A DNA stretch of 31,814 nucleotides, from UHGV virus genome UHGV-0219172; one strand, 5' to 3'. The position numbers and the translations under genes are program-made. Each line of letters starts with the position of its first letter. Position 1 is the stretch's first letter. A model generated the notes under the pieces. That model searched no databases, was not told the origin of the DNA, and saw nothing but the letters and a program-made list of their open reading frames with translations. This DNA is from a virus. Of this stretch, positions 4,200 to 31,814 are shown piece after piece.

Positions 4200-4471
4200 G
4201 TATTCGTATTGAAATTGGCGAACGTTATGTCGTTACCAGTGACAGCTTTCAGTTTATTCTCCACGAGAAAAAGAGAGCGGAAAGCGGTAAAAACGCCGGT
4301 CAGGAATGGCTGTCGGTGGTTGGTTATTACCCGAAATTAAGCCAGCTCGTTTCCGGCCTGATGCATCACGATATTCTGACCGGAAGCGCAAAGTCTTTTG
4401 CTGATTTAAACGCGCAGGTTGAGCAACTCAGCAAGCGTTGTTCAGAGGCTTTTGGCTCATATGGCCGTTAA
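4196..4471 (+). CDS. early operon small protein (P2 orf83-like)
   Basis: 91-aa ORF, overlapping-start coupling with its neighbours. Confidence 0.55.
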   Translation: MSIRIEIGERYVVTSDSFQFILHEKKRAESGKNAGQEWLSVVGYYPKLSQLVSGLMHHDILTGSAKSFADLNAQVEQLSKRCSEAFGSYGR

Positions 4472-6632
4472 AGCCTCCGGGCGTTTTGTCCCTCCGCCAG
4501 CATTTGCCGCAGGCACCGGTAAGGCGTTTACCGGTGCTTATGCATGGAACGCGCCACGCGAGGCCGTCGGGCGCGAAAGACCCCTTACACGTGACGAGAT
4601 GCGTCAGGTGCAAGGTGTTTTATCCACGATTAACCGCCTGCCTTACTTTTTGCGCTCGCTGTTTACTTCACGCTATGACTACATCCGGCGCAATAAAAGC
4701 CCGGTGCACGGGTTTTATTTCCTCACATCCACTTTTCAGCGTCGTTTATGGCCGCGCATTGAGCGTGTGAATCAGCGCCATGAAATGAACACCGACGCGT
4801 CGTTACTGTTTCTGGCAGAGCGTGACCACTATGCGCGCCTGCCGGGAATGAATGATAAGGAGCTAAAAAAGTTTGCTGCCCGTATCTCATCGCAGCTTTT
4901 CATGATGTATGAGGAACTCAGCGATGCCTGGGTGGATGCGCATGGCGAAAAAGAATCGCTGTTTACGGATGAGGCGCAGGCTCACCTCTATGGTCATGTT
5001 GCTGGCGCTGCACGTGCTTTCAATATTTCCCCGCTCTACTGGAAAAAATACCGTAAAGGGCAGATGACCACGAGGCAGGCATATTCTGCCATTGCCCGTC
5101 TGTTTAACGATGAGTGGTGGACTCATCAGCTTAAAGGCCAGCGTATGCGCTGGCATGAGGCGTTACTGATTGCTGTCGGGGAGGTCAATAAAGACCGTTC
5201 TCCTTATGCCAGTAAACATGCCATTCGTGATGTGCGTGCACGCCGCCAGGCAAATCTGGAATTTCTTAAATCGTGTGACCTTGAAAACAGGGAAACCGGC
5301 GAGCGCATCGACCTTATCAGTAAGGTGATGGGCAGTATTTCTAATCCTGAAATTCGCCGGATGGAGCTGATGAACACCATTGCCGGTATTGAGCGTTACG
5401 CCGCCGCAGAGGGTGATGTGGGGATGTTTATCACGCTGACCGCGCCGTCAAAGTATCACCCGACACGTCAGGTCAGAAAAGGCGAAAGTAAAACCGTTCA
5501 GCTTAATCACGGCTGGAACGATGAGGCATTTAATCCAAAGGATGCGCAGCGTTATCTCTGCCGCATCTGGAGCCTGATGCGCACGGCATTCAAGGATAAT
5601 GATTTACAGGTCTACGGTTTGCGTGTCGTCGAGCCACACCACGACGGAACGCCGCACTGGCATATGATGCTTTTTTGTAATCCACGCCAGCGTAACCAGA
5701 TTATCGAAATCATGCGTCGCTACGCGCTCAAAGAGGATGGAGACGAAAGAGGAGCTGCGCGAAACCGTTTTCAGGCAAAACACCTTAACCGGGGCGGTGC
5801 TGCGGGATATATCGCGAAATACATTTCAAAAAACATCGACGGCTATGCACTGGATGGTCAGCTCGATAACGATACCGGCAGGCCGCTGAAAGACACAGCG
5901 GCGGCTGTTACCGCATGGGCGTCAACGTGGCGCATCCCGCAATTTAAAACGGTTGGCCTGCCGACAATGGGGGCTTACCGTGAACTACGCAAATTGCCTC
6001 GCGGCGTCAGCATTGCTGATGAGTTTGACGAACGCGTCGAGGTTGCACGCGCCGCCGCAGACAGTGGTGATTTTGCGTTGTATATCAGCGCGCAGGGCGG
6101 GGCAAATGTCCCGCGCGATTGTCAGACTGTCAGGGTCGCCCGTAGTCCGTCGGATGAAGTTAACGAGTACGAGGAAGAAGTCGAGAGAGTGGTCGGCATT
6201 TACGCGCCGCATCTCGGCGCGCGTCATATTCATATCACCAGAACGACGGACTGGCGCATTGTGCCGAAAGTGCCGGTCGTTGAGCCTTTGACTTTAAAAA
6301 GCGGCATCGCCGCGCCTCGGAGTCCTGTCAATAACTGTGGAAAGTTCACCGGCGGTGACGTTCCGGTTATGCACCCTACACCGTCTGAGCATGCCGCAGC
6401 GGTGTTAAATCTGGTTGATAGTGGTGTTATCGGATGGGATGACCCGGAAGTTGTGACGGTGCTCAGGAGTGCATTAAAACATGGTGCACCGAGACCGAAT
6501 TGGCAACAAAGAAACTGCGAACCATTAAAACCGTACCAGATAGCGCCATCAGGGCGGATGAAAAAGGCTGAACGTTCGCAGATTCCACGCATCCATTTCG
6601 AGCTGGCACTAATTGGTAAAACCTATCAATAG
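4461..6632 (+). CDS. A: replication initiation protein A (rolling-circle nickase)
   Basis: Large ORF; the translation contains GYIAKYISKNIDGY, the paired active-site tyrosine motif of P2 A-type initiators. Start is ambiguous: in-frame ATGs at 4419 and 4461, both overlapping the end of the upstream gene. Confidence 0.85.
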   Translation: MAVKASGRFVPPPAFAAGTGKAFTGAYAWNAPREAVGRERPLTRDEMRQVQGVLSTINRLPYFLRSLFTSRYDYIRRNKSPVHGFYFLTSTFQRRLWPRIERVNQRHEMNTDASLLFLAERDHYARLPGMNDKELKKFAARISSQLFMMYEELSDAWVDAHGEKESLFTDEAQAHLYGHVAGAARAFNISPLYWKKYRKGQMTTRQAYSAIARLFNDEWWTHQLKGQRMRWHEALLIAVGEVNKDRSPYASKHAIRDVRARRQANLEFLKSCDLENRETGERIDLISKVMGSISNPEIRRMELMNTIAGIERYAAAEGDVGMFITLTAPSKYHPTRQVRKGESKTVQLNHGWNDEAFNPKDAQRYLCRIWSLMRTAFKDNDLQVYGLRVVEPHHDGTPHWHMMLFCNPRQRNQIIEIMRRYALKEDGDERGAARNRFQAKHLNRGGAAGYIAKYISKNIDGYALDGQLDNDTGRPLKDTAAAVTAWASTWRIPQFKTVGLPTMGAYRELRKLPRGVSIADEFDERVEVARAAADSGDFALYISAQGGANVPRDCQTVRVARSPSDEVNEYEEEVERVVGIYAPHLGARHIHITRTTDWRIVPKVPVVEPLTLKSGIAAPRSPVNNCGKFTGGDVPVMHPTPSEHAAAVLNLVDSGVIGWDDPEVVTVLRSALKHGAPRPNWQQRNCEPLKPYQIAPSGRMKKAERSQIPRIHFELALIGKTYQ

Positions 6633-6735
6633 TGATTTAATGAAATTTCGGAGTCATAAATATTGTGTATTTAACTAGATGATTGCAATATAAGTGCTTA
6701 TTATTTATGCGATTATAGCCATAACGGAGCTGAGT

Positions 6736-7665
6736 ATGAGTGTTGCAAGGCATCATCATTTTTTATCCCAATGTTATTTGAAAGGGTTTACAAGTAATGG
6801 GGGGAAAAAATCAAAATTAACTGTAATAGATTTAAAGGAGCGCAAAACCTTTGAGAGTAATACTCGCAATGTCGGGGGGGTTAGAGATTTCAACCGATTA
6901 GAATTGGATGGAGTTGACCCAAACTATCTCGAGAGTTCTCTTGCAGAGTTTGAAGGCAGTGTAGCTACTCATTTAAGAAAACTTGAGGAGGGGGGCGAGT
7001 TTTCAGGCGAAACCAAAGATGTTATTCTGGAGTTTATTTCCTTATTGGCAATACGTACGCCTGCTCAGCGAGAACATTTATCATCTCCATTGAAACAAAT
7101 AGCAAAGTTTATCATGAAATCCTCAGTTAGTTCGGCTGAGCGTTGGGACGATTGCAAATTAGCTTATGAGAAAGAAATGGGTGAGTCTTTGCCATATGAT
7201 CTCGCTTACGAAAAAATTAAAAATTTTGTGGATGGGGATAATTTCGAAATCAATGTAATCAGAGAGTTCATGATAGATATGGAAATGAAATGTGTACCTG
7301 TTATCACCAAGTTGTTGCATCAACGCAACTGGTCACTTATGACCATATCTGATGGGCAAGGGTCATTTATAACTTCAGATAACCCAGTTTGCTTAATGTG
7401 GACTAATCCTGAATTAGCACGAGGCCCTTATTCCCCCGGGTTTGGTGTAAAAGACACTTTAGTTTTGTTCCCAGTATCAAAAAACCTTCTTTTGGCGGGC
7501 GAGTTTGATGGTCATGAGGGTGTATTCAGTTGTAATGAGGAGCAGGCTGCGGTCTTCAATACTTCAGTCATTCGGCATACCGCAGAAAGAATATTTTCAT
7601 CTAATGATAATTTCAAATTTTTAGACTCATCTAAAAAAATGAAGCAAGGCAAAAGCCTGGTTTGA
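6736..7665 (+). CDS. cargo gene at the A-cos (tin/old) position: DUF4238-like protein, candidate single-gene anti-phage defence
   Basis: ATG 6736 with GGAG SD (6726-6729). The track start at 6694 is GTG. N-terminus HHFLSQCYLKGF and internal ITSDNPV resemble recalled DUF4238 signatures. Visibly AT-rich relative to the flanking phage genes. Confidence 0.55.
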   Translation: MSVARHHHFLSQCYLKGFTSNGGKKSKLTVIDLKERKTFESNTRNVGGVRDFNRLELDGVDPNYLESSLAEFEGSVATHLRKLEEGGEFSGETKDVILEFISLLAIRTPAQREHLSSPLKQIAKFIMKSSVSSAERWDDCKLAYEKEMGESLPYDLAYEKIKNFVDGDNFEINVIREFMIDMEMKCVPVITKLLHQRNWSLMTISDGQGSFITSDNPVCLMWTNPELARGPYSPGFGVKDTLVLFPVSKNLLLAGEFDGHEGVFSCNEEQAAVFNTSVIRHTAERIFSSNDNFKFLDSSKKMKQGKSLV

Positions 7666-8068: not shown

Positions 8069-9103
8069 TCAGCCGTTGTCAGTGTCCAGTGAGTAGTTTT
8101 TAAAGCGGATGACCTCCTGACCGAGCCAGCCGTTTATCTCGCGGATCCTGTCCTGTAGCGGGATAAGCTCATTGCGGACAAAGACCTTTGCCACTTTCTC
8201 AATATCACCCAGCGACCCGACGTTCTCCGGCTTGCCGCCCATCAACTGAAAGGGGATGCGGTGCGCGTCCAGCAGGTCAGCGGCGCTGGCTTTTTTGATA
8301 TTAAAAAAATCGTCCTTCGTTGCCACTTCACTGAGCGGGATAATTTTAATGCCGTCGGCTTTCCCCTGCGGGGCATAGAGAAACAGATTTTTAAAGTTGT
8401 TGCGGCCTTTCGACTTGACCATGTTTTCGCGAAGCATTTCGATATCGTTGCGATCCTGCACGGCATCGGTGACGTACATGATATATCCGGCATGAGCGCC
8501 GTTTTCGTAATACTTGCGGCGGAACAGCGTGGCCGACTCATTCAGCCAGGCAGAATTAAGGGCGCTGAGATATTCCGGCAGGCCGTACAGCTCCTGATTA
8601 ATATCCGGCTCCAGCAGGTGAAACACGGAGCCGGGCGCGAAGGCTGTCGGCTCGTTGAAGGACGGCACCCACCAGTAAACATCCTCCTCCACGCCACGGC
8701 GGGTATATTTTGCCGGTGAGGTTTCCAGTCTGATGACCTTACCGGTGGTGCTGTAACGCTTTTCCAGAAACGCATTACCGAACACCAGAAAATCCAGCAC
8801 AAAGCGGCTGAAATCCTGCTGGGAAAGCCACGGGTGCGGAATAAACGTTGAAGCCAGAATATTACGTTTGACGTAAATCGGTGAGCTGTGATGTACGGCA
8901 GCACGCAGGCTTTTTGCCAGACCGGTAAAGCTGACCGGTGGCTCATACCATCTGCCGTTACTGATGCACTCGACGTAATCCAGAATGTCACGGCGGTCGA
9001 GTACCGGCACCGGTTCACCAAAGGTGAATGCCTCCATTTTCGGGGCGCTGGCGGTCATTTTTTTTGCCGCAGGTTGCGGTGTTTTCCCTTTTTTCTTGCT
9101 CAT
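8069..9103 (-). CDS. Q: portal protein
   Basis: 344-aa ORF on the minus strand, in an operon with the large terminase and divergent from O, as in P2. Confidence 0.9.
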   Translation of the reverse strand: MSKKKGKTPQPAAKKMTASAPKMEAFTFGEPVPVLDRRDILDYVECISNGRWYEPPVSFTGLAKSLRAAVHHSSPIYVKRNILASTFIPHPWLSQQDFSRFVLDFLVFGNAFLEKRYSTTGKVIRLETSPAKYTRRGVEEDVYWWVPSFNEPTAFAPGSVFHLLEPDINQELYGLPEYLSALNSAWLNESATLFRRKYYENGAHAGYIMYVTDAVQDRNDIEMLRENMVKSKGRNNFKNLFLYAPQGKADGIKIIPLSEVATKDDFFNIKKASAADLLDAHRIPFQLMGGKPENVGSLGDIEKVAKVFVRNELIPLQDRIREINGWLGQEVIRFKNYSLDTDNG

Positions 9104-17453: not shown

Positions 17454-18197
17454 TTATCTGGTTAAATAAGTGAGCTCACTCTCTTTAGGTATTAGCTGAG
17501 TGTCTCCTCCCCATTCGTTCATGATGTTTTTTCTCGCATTCCAGTATTCTTGGTAAGTATCTTGATGAACAGTGTAGATACTTGCTAAAAGCCAGTGTTG
17601 ATACTTAAGAGTCGTGTATTGGTATTCTTCTATTATCGGTAAAATGAATAAGTTTTTTTGCTTTAGTGAGATTAAATATTCTTTTGTTTGTTTGGTGGTT
17701 CTGTCATTGTTTAAGATTCTTTCAATCTTAAATGAAAAGCCGTGCATGTTTATATTTCTTTGGAGGTGCATGAATGATGATATTGATGGGGCGATCATGT
17801 TTTGATGCGTCAGGATGTTTCTTAAATCCTCCATTAATTTTATTACTGGATTATTTCGGAATTCATGATTGATGAATGCCTCTGATTTGATTTTAATGTC
17901 GGCAATATTTAATGCTTTTGTTTTAAGTAGGTTGCGCGTTGAATCTCTAAATGATAATGCTGAAGATATATAATTGAAAAGGTGTCTTGATATGTTTAAA
18001 TGTTCTTTTTTAAATTTGTCTCTGTTAAATGAATGACGGGAAACAATGTCAGGGGAGTTGAATTTGCTTAATTCATGTTGGACAACTTCGTAATTGGCAA
18101 TATGCATATGTCCAAGTAAATTGGTGTCGGAGATTTTTAAATACTCTTGGTGGGCGATGGTGTCTTTTTGATTTTCCCAGATTTGATATTTATCCAT
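17454..18197 (-). CDS. cargo gene at the S-V (P2 orf30) position: 247-aa protein of unknown family with two RNxxxH motifs, candidate HEPN-like defence/abortive-infection protein
   Basis: Antisense to the late operon, with its own SD (AAGGAA upstream of the minus-strand ATG). Visibly AT-rich. Motifs LRNILTH (R126 to H131) and QRNINMH (R147 to H152) fit the HEPN Rx4-6H pattern. I recognise no family. Confidence 0.5.
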   Translation of the reverse strand: MDKYQIWENQKDTIAHQEYLKISDTNLLGHMHIANYEVVQHELSKFNSPDIVSRHSFNRDKFKKEHLNISRHLFNYISSALSFRDSTRNLLKTKALNIADIKIKSEAFINHEFRNNPVIKLMEDLRNILTHQNMIAPSISSFMHLQRNINMHGFSFKIERILNNDRTTKQTKEYLISLKQKNLFILPIIEEYQYTTLKYQHWLLASIYTVHQDTYQEYWNARKNIMNEWGGDTQLIPKESELTYLTR

Positions 18198-20706: not shown

Positions 20707-22635
20707 ATGAGCACAAAATTCAGAACCGTTATCACCACTGCCGGTGCAGCAAAGCTGGCAGCGGCAACCGCGCCTGGAGGGCGGAAGGTCAACATTACCA
20801 CGATGGCCGTCGGGGATGGCGGTGGTAAATTGCCTGTCCCGGATGCCGGACAGACCGGGCTTATCCATGAAGTCTGGCGACATGCGCTGAACAAAATCAG
20901 CCAGGACAAACGAAACAGTAATTATATTATCGCAGAGCTGGTTATTCCGCCGGAGGTGGGCGGTTTCTGGATGCGTGAGCTTGGCCTGTACGATGATGCG
21001 GGAACATTAATTGCCGTGGCGAACATGGCCGAAAGTTATAAGCCAGCTCTTGCCGAAGGCTCAGGGCGTTCGCAGACCTGTCGCATGGTCATCATCGTCA
21101 GCAGTGTGGCCTCAGTGGCGCTGACCATTGACACCACAACGGTGATGGCGACGCAGGATTACGTTGATGACAAAATTGCAGAGCATGAACAGTCACGACG
21201 TCACCCGGACGCCTCGCTGACCGCAAAAGGTTTTACTCAGTTAAGCAGTGCGATCAACAGCACGTCTGAAACACTGGCCGCAACGCCGAAAGCGGTAAAG
21301 GCCGCGTATGATCTTGCTAACGGGAAATACACTGCGCAGGATGCCACCACAGCGCGAAAAGGCCTTGTCCAGCTCAGTAGCGCCACCAACAGCACGTCTG
21401 AAACGCTCGCCGCAACACCAAAAGCGGTAAAGGCAGCATATGACCTTGCTAACGGGAAATACACTGCACAGGACGCCACCACAGCGCGAAAAGGTCTTGT
21501 CCAGCTCAGTAGCGCCACCAACAGCGATTCTGAAACGCTTGCAGCAACGCCAAAGGCGGTTAAGACAGCGTATGACCTTGCTAACGGGAAATACACTGCG
21601 CAGGATGCCACCACGGCGCGAAAAGGCCTTGTCCAGCTCAGTAGCGCCACCAACAGTGATTCTGAAACGCTGGCCGCAACACCAAAAGCAGTGAAGTCTG
21701 CCTATGACAATGCTGAAAAACGTCTTCAGAAAGATCAGAACGGTGCGGATATTCCGGGAAAGGATACCTTCACGAAAAATATCGGTGCCTGTCGTGCTTA
21801 TAGCGGCGCTTTGAGCACTGAAGCCGGAAACTGGACAACCGCTCAGTTTATTGAATGGCTGGATTCCCGTGGTGCATTTAATCATCCGTACTGGATGTGC
21901 AAATGTTCATGGTCATACGGCAATAATAAAATTATTACCGATACTGGCTGTGGAACTATTCATCTTGCAGGTTGCGTTATTGAGGTTATGGGTAATAAAG
22001 GTGCCATGACCATCCGTGTAACAACACCAAGCACTTCCACCGGAGGCGGCACCACTAACGCTCAATTCACTTATATTAATCATGGTGATGCTTATGCTCC
22101 TGGCTGGCGACGAGACTACAACACGAAAAACCAGCAGCCTGCATTTGCTTTAGGGAAAACAGGAAGCACTGTCGGAAATGATAAAGCTGTTGGCTGGAAC
22201 TGGAATAGCGGGGTCTATCAAGCAAATATTGGTGGCGCATCGACATTAATCCTCCATTTCAATATGAGCGAGGGGAGTTGCCCTGCCGTACAGTTCCGTG
22301 TGAATTATAAGAACGGCGGTATTTATTATCGTTCAGCGCGTGATGGTTATGGATTTGAGGCTGACTGGTCAGAGTTTTACACCACAACCCGCAAACCCTC
22401 TGCGGGAGATGTTGGTGCATATACCAAAGATGAATCGGATTCTCGCTATGTACGAGATATTCGCCTGGGCACACGTGTTGTTCAGACTATGCAAAAAGGT
22501 GTGATGTATGAGAAAGCAGGGCACGTAATTACCGGGCTTGGTATTGTCGGTGAAGTCGATGGTGATGACCCCGCAGTATTCAGACCAATACAAAAATACA
22601 TCAATGGAACATGGTATAACGTCGCACAGGTGTAA
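20707..22635 (+). CDS. H: tail fiber protein H with internal 44-aa tandem repeats and a lower-GC C-terminal domain
   Basis: 642-aa ORF after I. N-terminus conserved P2-like; the C-terminal third is visibly more AT-rich. Confidence 0.85.
   Translation: MSTKFRTVITTAGAAKLAAATAPGGRKVNITTMAVGDGGGKLPVPDAGQTGLIHEVWRHALNKISQDKRNSNYIIAELVIPPEVGGFWMRELGLYDDAGTLIAVANMAESYKPALAEGSGRSQTCRMVIIVSSVASVALTIDTTTVMATQDYVDDKIAEHEQSRRHPDASLTAKGFTQLSSAINSTSETLAATPKAVKAAYDLANGKYTAQDATTARKGLVQLSSATNSTSETLAATPKAVKAAYDLANGKYTAQDATTARKGLVQLSSATNSDSETLAATPKAVKTAYDLANGKYTAQDATTARKGLVQLSSATNSDSETLAATPKAVKSAYDNAEKRLQKDQNGADIPGKDTFTKNIGACRAYSGALSTEAGNWTTAQFIEWLDSRGAFNHPYWMCKCSWSYGNNKIITDTGCGTIHLAGCVIEVMGNKGAMTIRVTTPSTSTGGGTTNAQFTYINHGDAYAPGWRRDYNTKNQQPAFALGKTGSTVGNDKAVGWNWNSGVYQANIGGASTLILHFNMSEGSCPAVQFRVNYKNGGIYYRSARDGYGFEADWSEFYTTTRKPSAGDVGAYTKDESDSRYVRDIRLGTRVVQTMQKGVMYEKAGHVITGLGIVGEVDGDDPAVFRPIQKYINGTWYNVAQV
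21229..21709 (+). repeat. in-frame 132-bp tandem repeat, about 3.6 copies, inside tail fiber gene H
   Basis: Units begin at 21229, 21361, 21493 and 21625, each encoding G(L/F)(V/T)QLSSA(T/I)NS(T/D)SETLAATPKAVK(A/T/S)AYDLANGKYTAQDATTARK. Confidence 0.9.
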
Positions 22636-22638
22636 TTT

Positions 22639-23166
22639 ATGCAGCATTTAAAAAATATTATTGCGGGTAATCCAAAAACTGTTGCCCAATATCAACTGAC
22701 AAAAAATTTTGATGTTATCTGGTTATGGTCCGAAGAGGGAAAAAACTGGTATGAGGAAGTAAGTAATTTTCAGGAGGACACGATAAAGATTGTTTACGAC
22801 GAGAATAATATAATTGTCGGCATCACCAGAGATGCTTCAACGCTTAACCCTGAAGGTTTTAGCGTTGTCGAGGTTCCTGATATTACCGCCAACCGACGTG
22901 CTGATGACTCAGGTAAATGGATGTTTAAGGATGGTGCCGTGATTAAGCGGATTTATACGGCAGACGAACAGCAACAACAGGCCGAATCACAAAAGGCCGC
23001 GTTACTTTCCGAAGCGGAAAGCGTTATCCAGCCGCTGGAACGCACCGTCAGGCTGAATATGGCGACGGATGAGGAGCGCGCACGACTGGAGTCATGGGAA
23101 CGCTACAGCGTTCTGGTCAGCCGTGTGGATCCTGCAAATCCTGAATGGCCGGAAATACCGCAATAA
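22639..23166 (+). CDS. G: tail fiber assembly chaperone
   Basis: 175-aa ORF immediately after H, with lower GC like the H C-terminus. Confidence 0.8.
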
Positions 23167-23456
23167 GTTGTATGATATCTGGAGTGAGCTAACGTATCTA
23201 TGGCACAGAGTAAAACTTAATCTGACAGTCTGCTCTGTACCAAAAGCGGAACTTGCTTACATCGTGCTATGTTAGTTTGCTGGGAGCAGGTCATTATCTA
23301 CGTGATTGCTATTTTATAACTTGGATAAAATGAGGGATGAACATAATATCGAGACAGTGATTGCAGAGTTAGTCATTATAGGCGGGCATCAGTTCATGCC
23401 GGATCTCTAATGCAATTATCAGGAAAATATGGGACGTTTTATCAATCAGAGGAAAT

Positions 23457-24683
23457 ATGTTACAGTTCAGCTTTGTATCAAATGACGTTGTTATGACTTA
23501 CGACGGTGACAGCGGAGAACAAATAATTTGGGTTTGGGAGAGTTTAAATAAATTTCAAACAGTATGCATTTCACGAATTTTTAACTTTCAACTCCAGGAC
23601 TTGAGAAACCCACCGTCAACCGTTCAGGATTTTAATGATTACGAATATTCCTTTAATTTTGGCACGCTTAATAATGAATACATAACAGTTCCGGGACGGA
23701 TTCTAAGCATTAATCGAGATGTCCTTATACATAAGTCCATCAAGCTTGAAAGGAAAGTATTTGCGTCAGAACGCAACGTCTCCATTTTTGGTCGGCTTTC
23801 AAAACTACTCGATCACACTAATCCCATCATCATCGGAGGAGATAAGCCGGAAGCTATACCAAAAAGCGTATTCCAGGAGTTGCAAAGTAAATTCCACAAC
23901 ACAGGGGAACTGGATCGCTATGCTAATGCAAGGGTTCACGCTATTCTCGCAGGTTATCTTGATGGTATGAAAGATGCTCGCGAACGGTATGAACATTACC
24001 TAAACAGAAAAACAGTGATCAGAAAAACCGACAAACTGGATTTAGAAGTTTTAAATAAGCTCGAAATTGAGAAATATACACTCATAAGAGACATTATCCA
24101 GGATGCGTTGAATAACAAAACTAACTTGTCTGAAGATGACTGGCAGAGCCTGATGATACCCTTCATCACATTACTTTTTCCAAAATATATCAAGGTCCTC
24201 GAGAAGGTTAAAATTTTCGACTATTACTCTAATCCTTCGGCTAAAACAAATCGGTTTATAGACATTGCACTGGTGGATGCAAACGGCAACCTTGATATCA
24301 TCGAAGTCAAAAAGCCGTTTGATGATAAGATCCTTCGCAAGACGCCCTATCGCGATAACTATATTCCTACATCAGAACTTAGCGGCGGTATTATGCAGGC
24401 TGAAAAGTATATTTTTCATTTATCTAAATGGGGTGTTAAGGGTGAAAAAGAGCTTACGAATGCCTACAAGAATTCTCTGCCAGCGGGAATGTGTATTCGT
24501 ATATCTAACCCAAAAGCCATCATCATTGTCGGACGCGATCAGATAGCGAACGGTAACATGACCGACGGTCAGTTGCTTGATTTTGAGATAATCAAACGTA
24601 AGTACGCCAACATGATAGACATATTGACGTACGACGACCTGTTGCGTCGACTTAATAATACGATTGAAGCATTGAAAGGTTGA
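23457..24683 (+). CDS. cargo gene at the G-FI (Z/fun) position: 408-aa protein with a C-terminal PD-(D/E)xK nuclease-like core, possibly Shedu (DUF4263)-like; candidate anti-phage defence
   Basis: ATG 23457 with GAGG SD. Visibly AT-rich, flanked by about 290 bp of non-coding DNA on each side. C-terminal region FIDIALVDANGNLDIIEVKKP ... QAEKY gives D269/D280, E283-x-K285 and Q314...Y318, a restriction-endonuclease-fold pattern. Confidence 0.5.
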   Translation: MLQFSFVSNDVVMTYDGDSGEQIIWVWESLNKFQTVCISRIFNFQLQDLRNPPSTVQDFNDYEYSFNFGTLNNEYITVPGRILSINRDVLIHKSIKLERKVFASERNVSIFGRLSKLLDHTNPIIIGGDKPEAIPKSVFQELQSKFHNTGELDRYANARVHAILAGYLDGMKDARERYEHYLNRKTVIRKTDKLDLEVLNKLEIEKYTLIRDIIQDALNNKTNLSEDDWQSLMIPFITLLFPKYIKVLEKVKIFDYYSNPSAKTNRFIDIALVDANGNLDIIEVKKPFDDKILRKTPYRDNYIPTSELSGGIMQAEKYIFHLSKWGVKGEKELTNAYKNSLPAGMCIRISNPKAIIIVGRDQIANGNMTDGQLLDFEIIKRKYANMIDILTYDDLLRRLNNTIEALKG

Positions 24684-24752
24684 ATGCCCATGAGGTTCAC
24701 ACCCACAACGGGGAGCAGGTCACTTCCTCTTGTTTGATTGACATACCATAAC

Positions 24753-24776
24753 GTCTGCTTTTGGCTCAAAGCAGAC
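24753..24776 (+). terminator. hairpin, candidate terminator of the cargo gene
   Basis: 9-bp stem GTCTGCTTT / AAAGCAGAC with a 6-nt loop, about 70 bp after the stop, followed by T-rich sequence. Confidence 0.45.
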
Positions 24777-24844
24777 TGTCTGATTTGATAGCTTTTGGGC
24801 TATGTAAATTGTCAGTTGAAAAATGAGTGAGTACAAATCAGGAC

Positions 24845-24872
24845 GGGCGGGCGAGTTGCCCGCCTTTTCTTT
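24845..24872 (+). terminator. rho-independent terminator upstream of the FI late promoter region
   Basis: GC stem GGCGGGC (24846-24852) and GCCCGCC (24858-24864), loop GAGTT, then TTTTCTTT. Confidence 0.6.
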
Positions 24873-24969
24873 AATCTGTTGTTTCATCCACTGACCAGTC
24901 AGGTCAAATAGCGTCTTATGCACTGCCCAACAGAAAATAGTTGCACCCATTAACCACGGAGTTAAACGG

Positions 24970-26160
24970 ATGAGTGACTATCATCACGGCGTGCAGGTGC
25001 TGGAGATTAACGACGGCACCCGCGTCATTTCCACCGTATCCACCGCCATTGTTGGCATGGTCTGCACGGCCAGCGATGCGGATGCGGAAATCTTCCCACT
25101 CAATAAACCGGTGCTGATTACCAATGTGCAGAGCGCAATTGCAAAGGCCGGTAAAAAAGGCACGCTGGCGGCGTCGTTACAGGCCATCGCTGACCAGTCA
25201 AAACCGGTCACCGTTGTCGTACGTGTGGAAGACGGCACCGGCGACGACGAGGAAACGAAACTCGCGCAGACCGTTTCCAATATCATCGGCACTACCGACG
25301 AAAACGGTCAGTACACCGGACTGAAAGCCCTGCTGGCGGCGGAGTCGGTAACCGGTGTTAAACCGCGTATTCTCGGTGTGCCGGGGCTGGATACCAAAGA
25401 GGTGGCTGTTGCACTGGCATCAGTCTGTCAGAAGCTGCGCGCTTTCGGGTATATCAGCGCATGGGGCTGTAAAACCATTTCCGAGGTGAAAGCTTACCGC
25501 CAGAATTTCAGCCAGCGTGAGCTGATGGTCATCTGGCCGGATTTCCTCGCATGGGATACGGTCGCCAGTACCACCGCCACCGCGTATGCCACCGCCCGTG
25601 CGCTGGGTCTGCGCGCTAAAATCGACCAGGAGCAGGGCTGGCATAAAACGCTGTCCAACGTCGGGGTGAACGGTGTTACCGGCATCAGCGCATCTGTATT
25701 CTGGGATTTGCAGGAGTCCGGTACTGATGCTGACCTGCTTAACGAGTCAGGTGTCACTACGCTGATTCGCCGCGACGGTTTCCGCTTCTGGGGTAACTGT
25801 ACCTGCTCTGATGACCCGCTGTTCCTCTTTGAAAACTACACCCGCACCGCGCAGGTGTTGGCCGACACGATGGCTGAGGCGCACATGTGGGCGGTGGATA
25901 AGCCCATCACCGCAACGCTGATTCGCGACATCGTTGACGGCATCAATGCCAAATTCCGTGAGCTGAAAACAAACGGCTATATCGTGGATGCGACCTGCTG
26001 GTTCAGCGAAGAATCCAACGATGCGGAAACCCTCAAGGCCGGAAAACTGTATATCGACTACGACTATACACCGGTGCCTCCTCTCGAAAACCTGACCCTG
26101 CGCCAGCGTATTACCGATAAATACCTGGCAAATCTGGTCACCTCGGTTAACAGCAATTAA
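24970..26160 (+). CDS. FI: contractile tail sheath protein
   Basis: 396-aa ORF followed by the tail tube gene; conserved P2 FI/FII pair. Confidence 0.9.
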   Translation: MSDYHHGVQVLEINDGTRVISTVSTAIVGMVCTASDADAEIFPLNKPVLITNVQSAIAKAGKKGTLAASLQAIADQSKPVTVVVRVEDGTGDDEETKLAQTVSNIIGTTDENGQYTGLKALLAAESVTGVKPRILGVPGLDTKEVAVALASVCQKLRAFGYISAWGCKTISEVKAYRQNFSQRELMVIWPDFLAWDTVASTTATAYATARALGLRAKIDQEQGWHKTLSNVGVNGVTGISASVFWDLQESGTDADLLNESGVTTLIRRDGFRFWGNCTCSDDPLFLFENYTRTAQVLADTMAEAHMWAVDKPITATLIRDIVDGINAKFRELKTNGYIVDATCWFSEESNDAETLKAGKLYIDYDYTPVPPLENLTLRQRITDKYLANLVTSVNSN

Positions 26161-31674: not shown

Positions 31675-31701
31675 AAAAAATAAGCCCGTGTAAGGGAGAT
31701 T
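31675..31701. repeat. attR core: second copy of the 27-bp att direct repeat
   Basis: Identical to 783-809. Confidence 0.85.
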
Positions 31702-31814
31702 ACACAGGCTAAGGAGGTGGTTCCTGGTACAGCTAGCATTTTATGGGTTATGTTTTTCAGCGAAACGGATGATAACCTTAATAAATGCAGCTGTATGTGA
31801 TCGGTTTCTAAGAA

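Follow-up and report, generated by a model that had tools for sequence, protein, structure and literature searches.

The window analysed here, the full 31,814 nt of the virus genome UHGV-0219172, carries at 23457–24683 on the plus strand an open reading frame (ATG start, 408 aa plus stop codon) that we assign with high confidence to sduA, the gene of a Shedu immune nuclease. A Shine–Dalgarno-like AGAGGA motif (23448–23453) lies upstream, with 3 nt between its end and the ATG. The left neighbour on the same strand is gene G for tail fibre assembly (22639–23166; Pfam Caudo_TAP, E 2e-35, and RefSeq annotation of a near-identical prophage), and the right neighbour, also on the plus strand, is gene FI for the tail sheath (24970–26160; Pfam Phage_sheath_1, Phage_sheath_1C and Gp18_domIII_N, and RefSeq annotation). 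These Pfam neighbours, together with synteny to the annotated P2-like prophage and to P2, place sduA between G and FI in the position of fun(Z), as the preliminary description of this DNA, made from the letters alone, had proposed. It had also called the CDS visibly AT-rich, which agrees with its GC content of 39.4% compared to 51.5% for the window and with a GC profile that falls to 0.37–0.42 over 23200–24600. The spacers around the gene measure 290 bp on its upstream side and 286 bp on its downstream side, close to the 290 bp of non-coding DNA it had given for each side. One antisense ORF in the downstream spacer (24720–24950, 76 aa) was considered as a hidden gene, since it matches phrog_11095 and is annotated in two phages. 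A 1-nt indel shifts its frame and length between P2 lineages (45 aa versus 76–83 aa) and the changes in the 27 shared residues are all non-synonymous; it is therefore most likely not a gene, and the downstream spacer can still be described as non-coding. No other small ORF of more than 35 codons was found in either spacer, and Rfam placed no RNA family at the locus or close to it, its sole match in the window being CyaR at the far right end.

Homology to P2 stops at about 23250 and resumes at about 24749, which delimits a variable Z/fun cargo cassette (23251–24748) not shared with the P2 backbone. This cassette of 1.5 kb consists of one ORF with no methylase or other partner gene, its neighbours being the tail genes G and FI, so that sduA stands at the P2 Z/fun locus as the single gene expected of a Shedu system. 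On both sides it is flanked by the conserved inverted repeats of the Z-region, imperfect arms of 32 nt each that are 84% complementary. The left arm (23219–23250) is a feature of the P2 backbone, is conserved in P2 and lies inside the ‘left inverted repeat’ of record AJ512677; the right arm (24754–24785) lies inside the ‘Right inverted repeat’ of the same record, overlaps the first of two downstream hairpins and is kept in seven P2-like phages with different cargo. In phage P2 itself, fun(Z) occupies the same slot between G and FI in the same orientation and within the same conserved backbone borders. It too is a defence gene, but it encodes an unrelated protein of 299 aa, and the P2 DNA between the repeat arms has no similarity to the sduA cassette. 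Nilsson et al. 2004 (Mol Biol Evol 21:1) are said to have given the first description of these Z-regions.

A putative sduA promoter (TTGGAT, 17 nt, TAATAT) lies at 23321–23349 on the plus strand. It was annotated by the depositors of AJ512677, was transferred here by coordinates and resembles the consensus weakly, at only 7 of the 12 positions; a consensus scan of the upstream spacer returned no plus-strand sigma-70 site with at least 9 of 12 matches. Downstream of the gene, both of the hairpins that the preliminary description had read as terminators were found. Hairpin 1 (24753–24776) has a 9-bp stem and a folding energy of −13.3 kcal/mol (z −3.4). The second, intrinsic-terminator-like element occupies 24845–24875 on the plus strand in the backbone upstream of FI and reads GGGCGGGC-GAGTT-GCCCGCC followed by TTTTCTTT; its hairpin (24845–24865) folds at −20.1 kcal/mol (z −3.7) and is kept in each of the seven P2-like phages that were aligned. 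None of 200 shuffles folded as well as either hairpin. A search upstream of FI for the Ogr-type dyad TGT-N12-ACA gave two sites, each with one mismatch.

The preliminary description had guessed that the protein belongs to Shedu (SduA/DUF4263) and had suggested an HMM search for DUF4263 as a check. In a profile search, the 408-aa protein matched Pfam SduA_C (PF14082; DUF4263) with 115.5 bits against a cut-off of 27 (E 3.4e-33), the match running over protein residues 224–396 and profile positions 2–159 of 159. The PADLOC SduA model PDLC04067 scored 722 bits over residues 1–407 and a second, PDLC00388, also matched over the full length, whereas PADLOC models of other SduA subfamilies matched the C-terminal part only, with E values of 1e-12 or weaker. 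Among solved structures, the protein of PDB entries 8PS4 and 8PS5 (‘Shedu effector protein’) is identical at 407 of 408 residues (99.75%), and the crystal construct of the N-terminal domain, 8PS6, has the same residues 1–188 except for residue 147. The sequence cluster of the window protein includes ELC07825.1, the very construct used by Loeff et al., and the RefSeq label for the same gene is ‘Shedu immune nuclease family protein’. Because an NCBIfam profile search of the 408-aa protein gave no match, the name SduA rests on Pfam, PADLOC, PDB and RefSeq. The PHROGs search gave only an unnamed family. More distant homologues do not share the flanking P2 genes, with no homologue of G, FI or H in the flanks searched. 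Overall, these data make it very probable that the ORF at 23457–24683 encodes SduA, the sole protein of a type I Shedu system, carried by a P2-like prophage as lysogenic-conversion cargo in Z/fun.

The limits of the domains can be transferred from EcSduA, the near-identical protein studied by Loeff et al. (bioRxiv 10.1101/2023.08.10.552762), with which the window protein shares 407 of 408 residues. Residues 1–145 (23457–23891, plus strand) form the N-terminal sensor domain, to which these authors assign the clamp for dsDNA ends with W25; residues 146–188 (23892–24020, plus strand) form an α-helical linker that includes codon 147 and the DNA-contact residues R154 and Y181; and residues 195–408 (24039–24680, plus strand) form the DUF4263/SduA_C nuclease domain of the PD-(D/E)xK type, supported by the Pfam match and by published mutagenesis. 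This order of N-terminal sensor, helical linker and C-terminal nuclease is that of the EcSduA type (type I; Type 1B of Gu et al.). A variable N-terminal domain followed by a C-terminal nuclease had been read correctly from the letters, but the sizes had not: the nuclease spans about 214 residues instead of 150, and the sensor region about 190 instead of 250. Alanine mutants define the active site of EcSduA as E226, Q230, D269, E283, K285 and Q314 (bioRxiv 10.1101/2023.08.10.552762). All six are present here, which leaves the PD-(D/E)xK constellation of Shedu intact, and all 13 published functional residues, W25, R106 and K116 among them, are found in the window protein. Across 30 homologues at 37–64% identity, the six catalytic residues are kept in 29–30, and W25 is kept in all 27 homologues aligned. 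The preliminary description had drawn the active site from D269, D280, E283, V284, K285, Q314 and Y318, all of which do stand at the positions it gave. D269, E283, K285 and Q314 have been validated by mutation; D280 and Y318 lie outside the published active site and E226 and Q230 have to be added. D280 (30/30 homologues) and Y318 (29/30) are conserved as well and were not among the residues tested by Loeff et al. This shows that Shedu, with four of its catalytic residues, can be recognised correctly from the letters without tools.

The gene, its structure, mechanism and phenotype, and its location in P2 Z/fun are all already known from the literature. The closest characterised relative is EcSduA of E. 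coli KTE10 (ELC07825.1; 8PS4, 8PS5 and 8PS6; Loeff, Walter, Rosalen and Jinek, bioRxiv 10.1101/2023.08.10.552762), which has the same length, domains, and catalytic and DNA-contact residues as the window protein and differs from it only at residue 147 (Pro there, His here). It shares the P2 Z/fun context, and the occurrence of Shedu in this locus is stated by its authors. In Vassallo et al. 2022 (PMC9519451), the same gene appears as PD-T4-8 (RCP52534.1), obtained from E. coli ECOR31 in an independent functional selection for defence against T4. It is described there as a single 1227-nt DUF4263 gene of a P2-like prophage and was cloned together with the promoter native to it. Gu et al. (bioRxiv 10.1101/2023.08.10.552793) place PD-T4-8 in Type 1B and state that abortive infection had been proposed for it, a proposal that conflicts with the direct immunity found for EcSduA. 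PD-T4-8 differs from the window protein by a few substitutions, those of the AJ512677 copy including T121N and H147P (window to record). This record of the ECOR31 prophage locus is 99.5% identical in DNA to 23167–24969 of the window, with nine differences in 1803 nt, and its ORF1 in the P2-EC31 Z-region has the same locus, flanking inverted repeats and annotated promoter. It lacks one T (window position 24412), which reduces the annotated ORF1 protein to 362 aa; since Vassallo et al. give the ECOR31 gene a length of 1227 nt, the missing T probably reflects a mistake in the older sequence. SduA of Bacillus cereus, reportedly the founding Shedu of Doron et al. 2018, is more remote. Like the window protein it works as a single protein in which a variable sensor at the N-terminus precedes a DUF4263 nuclease of the PD-(D/E)xK type at the C-terminus, and its core is tetrameric, but its N-terminal domain is of an unrelated class and a different route of activation has been proposed for it (bioRxiv 10.1101/2023.08.10.552793).

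From these relatives a mode of action can be proposed for the window protein, in which the steps of clamping, nicking and T2/T6 exclusion were shown by others on a protein whose only difference is P147. The behaviour of the PD-T4-8 clone suggests that sduA would be expressed in the lysogen from its own cassette promoter. The protein would assemble into a homotetramer whose paired N-terminal domains form a narrow clamp that linear dsDNA can enter only with a free end, which stacks on W25. The duplex would then be laid over a positively charged channel and across the Mg2+-dependent PD-(D/E)xK active site, which would nick the 5′ strand about 13–14 nt from the end. For EcSduA, a monodisperse tetramer with a Mg2+ ion already in the active site of the apo map, the end clamp, a W25A mutant and DNA-binding patches have been described, and the nicking product is 13 nt long (bioRxiv 10.1101/2023.08.10.552762). 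Circular host and plasmid DNA would be spared and linear phage DNA hit, notably the intermediates of recombination-dependent replication in T-even phages. In the same work, EcSduA lowered transformation with linear DNA about 10-fold and left that with circular plasmids unaffected; phage escape mutants mapped to uvsW. A result that speaks against the proposed mode of action is that genomic T2, T6 and T7 DNA showed no substantial degradation in vitro. Infection by T2 and T6 would be blocked without cell death, the plating efficiency of both phages being lowered by more than 30,000-fold with EcSduA. We further suggest that the two downstream hairpins stop sduA transcription from entering the late FI operon, and that the circular replication and packaging substrates of P2 make the cargo tolerable to its carrier. 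An anti-phage phenotype dependent on the nuclease has been shown for the P147 protein and for PD-T4-8, and it would be expected for the H147 allele.

Other readings of this activity have to be weighed against direct immunity by an end-clamping tetramer. The same Shedu could protect by abortive infection, through general DNA damage that kills the infected cell or halts its growth. The nuclease domain of EcSduA is toxic when expressed without the N-terminal domain, which indicates that the enzyme can harm the host; yet cultures with full-length EcSduA did not collapse after T6 at an MOI of 5 but grew like uninfected controls (bioRxiv 10.1101/2023.08.10.552762), transformation with circular plasmids was unaffected, as noted above, and the main text of Vassallo et al. 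(PMC9519451), in the part accessible to us, gives no classification for PD-T4-8. We therefore regard abortive infection as improbable. It also seems unlikely that the window protein is activated like the Bacillus cereus enzyme, for which the abstract of Gu et al. (bioRxiv 10.1101/2023.08.10.552793) describes a conformational change that makes a sequestered active site complete and promotes assembly into higher-order forms, so that the static end-clamping tetramer would be a partial story. What speaks for this is the DNA-bound structure of EcSduA, in which about 12 Å separate the scissile phosphate from the catalytic centre; according to its authors, a rearrangement is needed (bioRxiv 10.1101/2023.08.10.552762). 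On the other hand, BcSduA and EcSduA have N-terminal domains of different classes, the matches to PADLOC models for other SduA subfamilies are confined to the C-terminal part here, and EcSduA is a monodisperse tetramer with Mg2+ already bound in the apo active site. Finally, the gene might have no role in defence and encode a stray restriction-type endonuclease, a homing nuclease or a phage DNA-processing enzyme, as AJ512677 says only ‘putative lysogenic conversion protein’ and NCBIfam has no model for it. Two independent laboratories have shown a defence phenotype for near-identical proteins, the cassette has no methylase or other partner, and the Z/fun slot is a recognised defence hotspot; the published plaque assays effectively refute this last reading, which we consider extremely improbable.

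The only item that is new relative to the literature is P147H at an invariant hinge proline. Codon 147 (23895–23897) is CAC for His, the sole protein-level difference from EcSduA. Pro147 is invariant in 29 of 29 distant homologues, Proteobacteria and Verrucomicrobia included, and all other 408-aa proteins listed as members of the 90% cluster have it too. The 61-mer around codon 147 has one mismatch in all 53 complete E. coli genomes that carry the gene and an exact match in none; in 20A24, the one of the 53 read at base level, the mismatch is a C at 23896, giving Pro. Residue 147 is at the junction of sensor domain and linker, and in EcSduA the sensor domain restrains the nuclease (bioRxiv 10.1101/2023.08.10.552762). 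The activity or regulation of the H147 allele could differ, because P147H replaces an invariant proline at the domain–linker junction. Judged from sequence, the window appears to hold a rare natural P147H allele, and we raise only tentatively that the change at the hinge could alter specificity, activation threshold or toxicity to the host; P147H could also bear on the control of the nuclease by the sensor domain. If the hinge sets the geometry of the clamp or auto-inhibition, this allele would be a natural probe of the activation step of Shedu.

The same observations, namely the invariance of Pro147 across several phyla and the listed cluster members, the consistent mismatch in the carrier genomes with Pro in 20A24, and the position of the residue where a restraining sensor meets the linker, would also fit a Shedu that is weakened, has lost its activity or is mis-regulated, so that the cargo gene would be decaying or altered instead of serving as a working defence. 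We think this rather doubtful. The frame is intact and all residues known to matter are present; the H147 allele with identical flanks was found in three independent assemblies, suggesting that it persists in nature; and toxicity should lead to the loss of a de-repressed nuclease. A working Shedu with an altered hinge residue is the reading that we prefer.

With regard to the wider locus, the accessible sections of Rousset et al. 2022 and of the 2026 P2/P4 preprint make no mention of Shedu or the Z/fun hotspot. The prophage of the window carries defence genes at both of its cargo hotspots: Z/fun has Shedu, and the site between gpA and the portal gene has one for a DUF4238 protein.

The stretch is a P2-like prophage that comprises, from the integrase (889–1902) onwards, gpA and the portal, capsid, lysis and tail genes, and it is collinear with the prophage annotated in strain 20A24. 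The gene under study, sduA (23457–24683, + strand), has 408 codons with an ATG start, 3 nt upstream of which an AGAGGA motif ends. Both the ORF and the matches of its neighbours, a Caudo_TAP tail-fibre assembly protein (22639–23166) and a tail sheath protein (24970–26160), agree with the preliminary description, which had placed a 408-aa CDS between these two genes. It had called the CDS AT-rich, and the GC content is 39.4% compared to 51.5% for the window; the flanks of about 290 bp measure 290 bp upstream and 286 bp downstream. The two hairpins it had noted 3′ of the gene are both stable, one at 24753–24776 (−13.3 kcal/mol, z −3.4) and the other at 24845–24865, followed by TTTTCTTT (−20.1 kcal/mol, z −3.7).

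The gene product is SduA, the Shedu defence protein. Its Pfam hit is SduA_C (PF14082, the former DUF4263; 115.5 bits, E 3.4e-33), and the PADLOC SduA model PDLC04067 covers residues 1–407 (722 bits), with the SduA models of other subfamilies matching the C-terminal part only. Comparison with the PDB gave 407/408 identity to the chains of 8PS4 and 8PS5 (‘Shedu effector protein’), and the crystal construct 8PS6 matches the first 188 residues, the sole difference being residue 147. The 90% cluster holding the protein also contains ELC07825.1, which differs at residue 147 only and is the accession of ‘EcSduA’ from E. coli KTE10 in Loeff et al. (bioRxiv 10.1101/2023.08.10.552762). RefSeq names the same gene ‘Shedu immune nuclease family protein’. 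Pfam, PADLOC, PDB, RefSeq and position thus fully support the earlier suggestion of a PD-(D/E)xK nuclease cargo with Shedu architecture in Z/fun, the P2 cargo hotspot between G and FI. At ≥99% identity, sduA was found in 53 of 5,426 complete E. coli genomes, chromosomal every time. As a Shedu system in Z/fun the gene is already known; Loeff et al. report that this locus of P2 prophages houses Shedu systems.

All 13 functional residues named by Loeff et al. are present in the window protein, and the motif residues proposed from the sequence (D269, D280, E283, K285, Q314 and Y318) were each found at their proposed positions. We compared 30 homologues of 37–64% identity from Pseudomonas, many Alphaproteobacteria, Burkholderiales, Akkermansia and Methylacidiphilum (L009–L038). 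E226, D269 and D280 are invariant across them, Q230, E283, K285, Q314 and Y318 are each present in 29/30, and W25 in 27/27. Conservation of the motif in homologues, on which the preliminary description had staked the nuclease reading, is therefore borne out, with the residues kept in 29–30 of 30. No P2 tail genes were found near the full-length homologues among these loci, and at the 12 loci checked the GC content of the homologue is below that of its flanks (0.41 vs 0.63 at L009). Internal stop codons interrupt two of the homologue copies, L032 and L036.

Codon 147 of sduA (23895–23897) is CAC, encoding His. Pro occupies this position in the PDB protein, in all other 408-aa members listed for the 90% cluster and in 29/29 aligned distant homologues. 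In strain 20A24, the one genome checked at base level, Pro147 was confirmed base by base, and a 61-mer centred on the codon has exactly one mismatch in 53/53 complete E. coli genomes with sduA, which fits the same C/A difference. The His147 allele is real, since one Logan run and two ENA metagenomes, all of them independent assemblies, carry it with flanks identical across 23167–24969 and the same G and FI neighbours.

In phage P2, the slot that sduA fills here in the G–FI interval is filled by the 299-aa fun(Z). Similarity to the P2 backbone is lost at ~23250 and regained at ~24749, indicating a swapped cassette of ~1.5 kb. An imperfect inverted repeat of 32 nt (arms 23219–23250 and 24754–24785, 84% complementary) abuts the cassette breakpoints with its inner ends, within a few bases. 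GenBank entry AJ512677 (‘P2-EC31 proviral Z-region, ORF1’), 99.5% identical to the window sduA region over 1803 bp, carries ‘left’ and ‘right inverted repeat’ features that enclose these arms. The right arm and the downstream terminator are kept in seven P2-like phages with quite different cargo, which in one of these phages lies on the opposite strand, and cargo exchange may use the inverted repeat as a substrate. The repeat-bounded cassette and the P147H allele are worth a line rather than a project.

Vassallo et al. 2022 (PMC9519451) describe a selection for T4 resistance that yielded PD-T4-8, a 1227-nt DUF4263 gene from ECOR31, whose defence was confirmed after cloning with the native promoter; a second defence-enriched P2 locus, containing fun, is also reported there. 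The name P2-EC31 points to ECOR31 as the host, so PD-T4-8 is the sduA gene. Gu et al. (bioRxiv 10.1101/2023.08.10.552793) class PD-T4-8 as Type 1B Shedu. The depositors of AJ512677 annotated a promoter, TTGGAT-17-TAATAT at 23321–23349, in which 7/12 positions fit the consensus; this annotation and the working native-flank clone are the two grounds on which we infer native expression of sduA. AJ512677 lacks one T at the site equal to window 24412, which cuts its annotated ORF1 to 362 aa; this is probably an old sequencing error, because the ECOR31 gene in Vassallo et al. has the full 1227 nt.

In the work of Loeff et al. (bioRxiv 10.1101/2023.08.10.552762), EcSduA reduced plating of T2 and T6 >30,000-fold, and cultures survived T6 at an MOI of 5. 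This survival conflicts with the proposal, reported by Gu et al., that PD-T4-8 acts abortively. EcSduA is a 195-kDa tetramer with a sensor (1–145), a helical linker (146–188) and a nuclease domain (195–408) that is toxic on its own. It acts on dsDNA, not ssDNA or RNA, and requires Mg2+. Alanine substitutions in the active site (E226, Q230, D269, E283, K285 and Q314) abolish both defence and cleavage; the exception is Q230A, which only lowers immunity in vivo. In the DNA complex, the duplex end is held in a 17 Å clamp of two N-terminal domains and stacked on W25, the backbone is guided by three basic patches, and the scissile phosphate lies ~12 Å away from the metal. Nicking gives a product ~13 nt from each 5′ end, independent of substrate length, and EcSduA did not substantially break down whole phage genomes in vitro. 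EcSduA lowers transformation by linear DNA ~10-fold and does not lower that by circular plasmid, and T6 escapers carry uvsW mutations. Although worked out on the P147 protein, this mechanism would be expected to carry over to the His147 allele. P2 uses monomeric circles for replication and packaging alike, which could make an end-sensing nuclease tolerable as P2 cargo.

An antisense ORF of 76 aa (24720–24950, − strand) in the spacer 5′ of FI matches phrog_11095, and the annotations of phages HQ103 and 11W list its counterpart as a ‘hypothetical protein’ of 45 aa. The frame of this ORF differs between lineages owing to a 1-nt indel in the T-tract of the terminator, and every change in the shared N-terminus is non-synonymous; both argue against a gene, and the ORF is probably a spurious annotation across conserved regulatory DNA. 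The P2 late promoter of the FI operon is situated upstream of FI.

A protein matching Pfam DUF4238 (E 5e-39) and PADLOC ‘DUF4238-Pers’ (725 bits) is encoded at 6694–7665 (+ strand), in the P2 cargo hotspot other than Z/fun, which separates replication gene A (4419–6632) from the portal gene (8069–9103). As Rousset et al. reported T7 defence by a protein of this kind, the prophage, with Shedu in Z/fun, carries two defence genes. A possible third accessory slot holds a 247-aa ORF (17454–18197, − strand), which is flanked by the virion-morphogenesis gene and baseplate gene V; searches of Pfam and PADLOC gave no match, its only hit is the unnamed phrog_12680, and its RefSeq counterpart is a ‘hypothetical protein’. 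Just outside the right end lies a CyaR/RyeE sRNA gene (31678–31763, − strand; 100.7 bits), and yegQ comes after ogrK in the near-identical 20A24 prophage, which together place the prophage at the yegQ-side attachment site. Within tail fibre gene H (20707–22635), the segment 21200–21700 has four Pfam Phage_fiber_2 matches with a repeat of ~40 residues, and this repeat DNA also yields long spurious ORFs on both strands.
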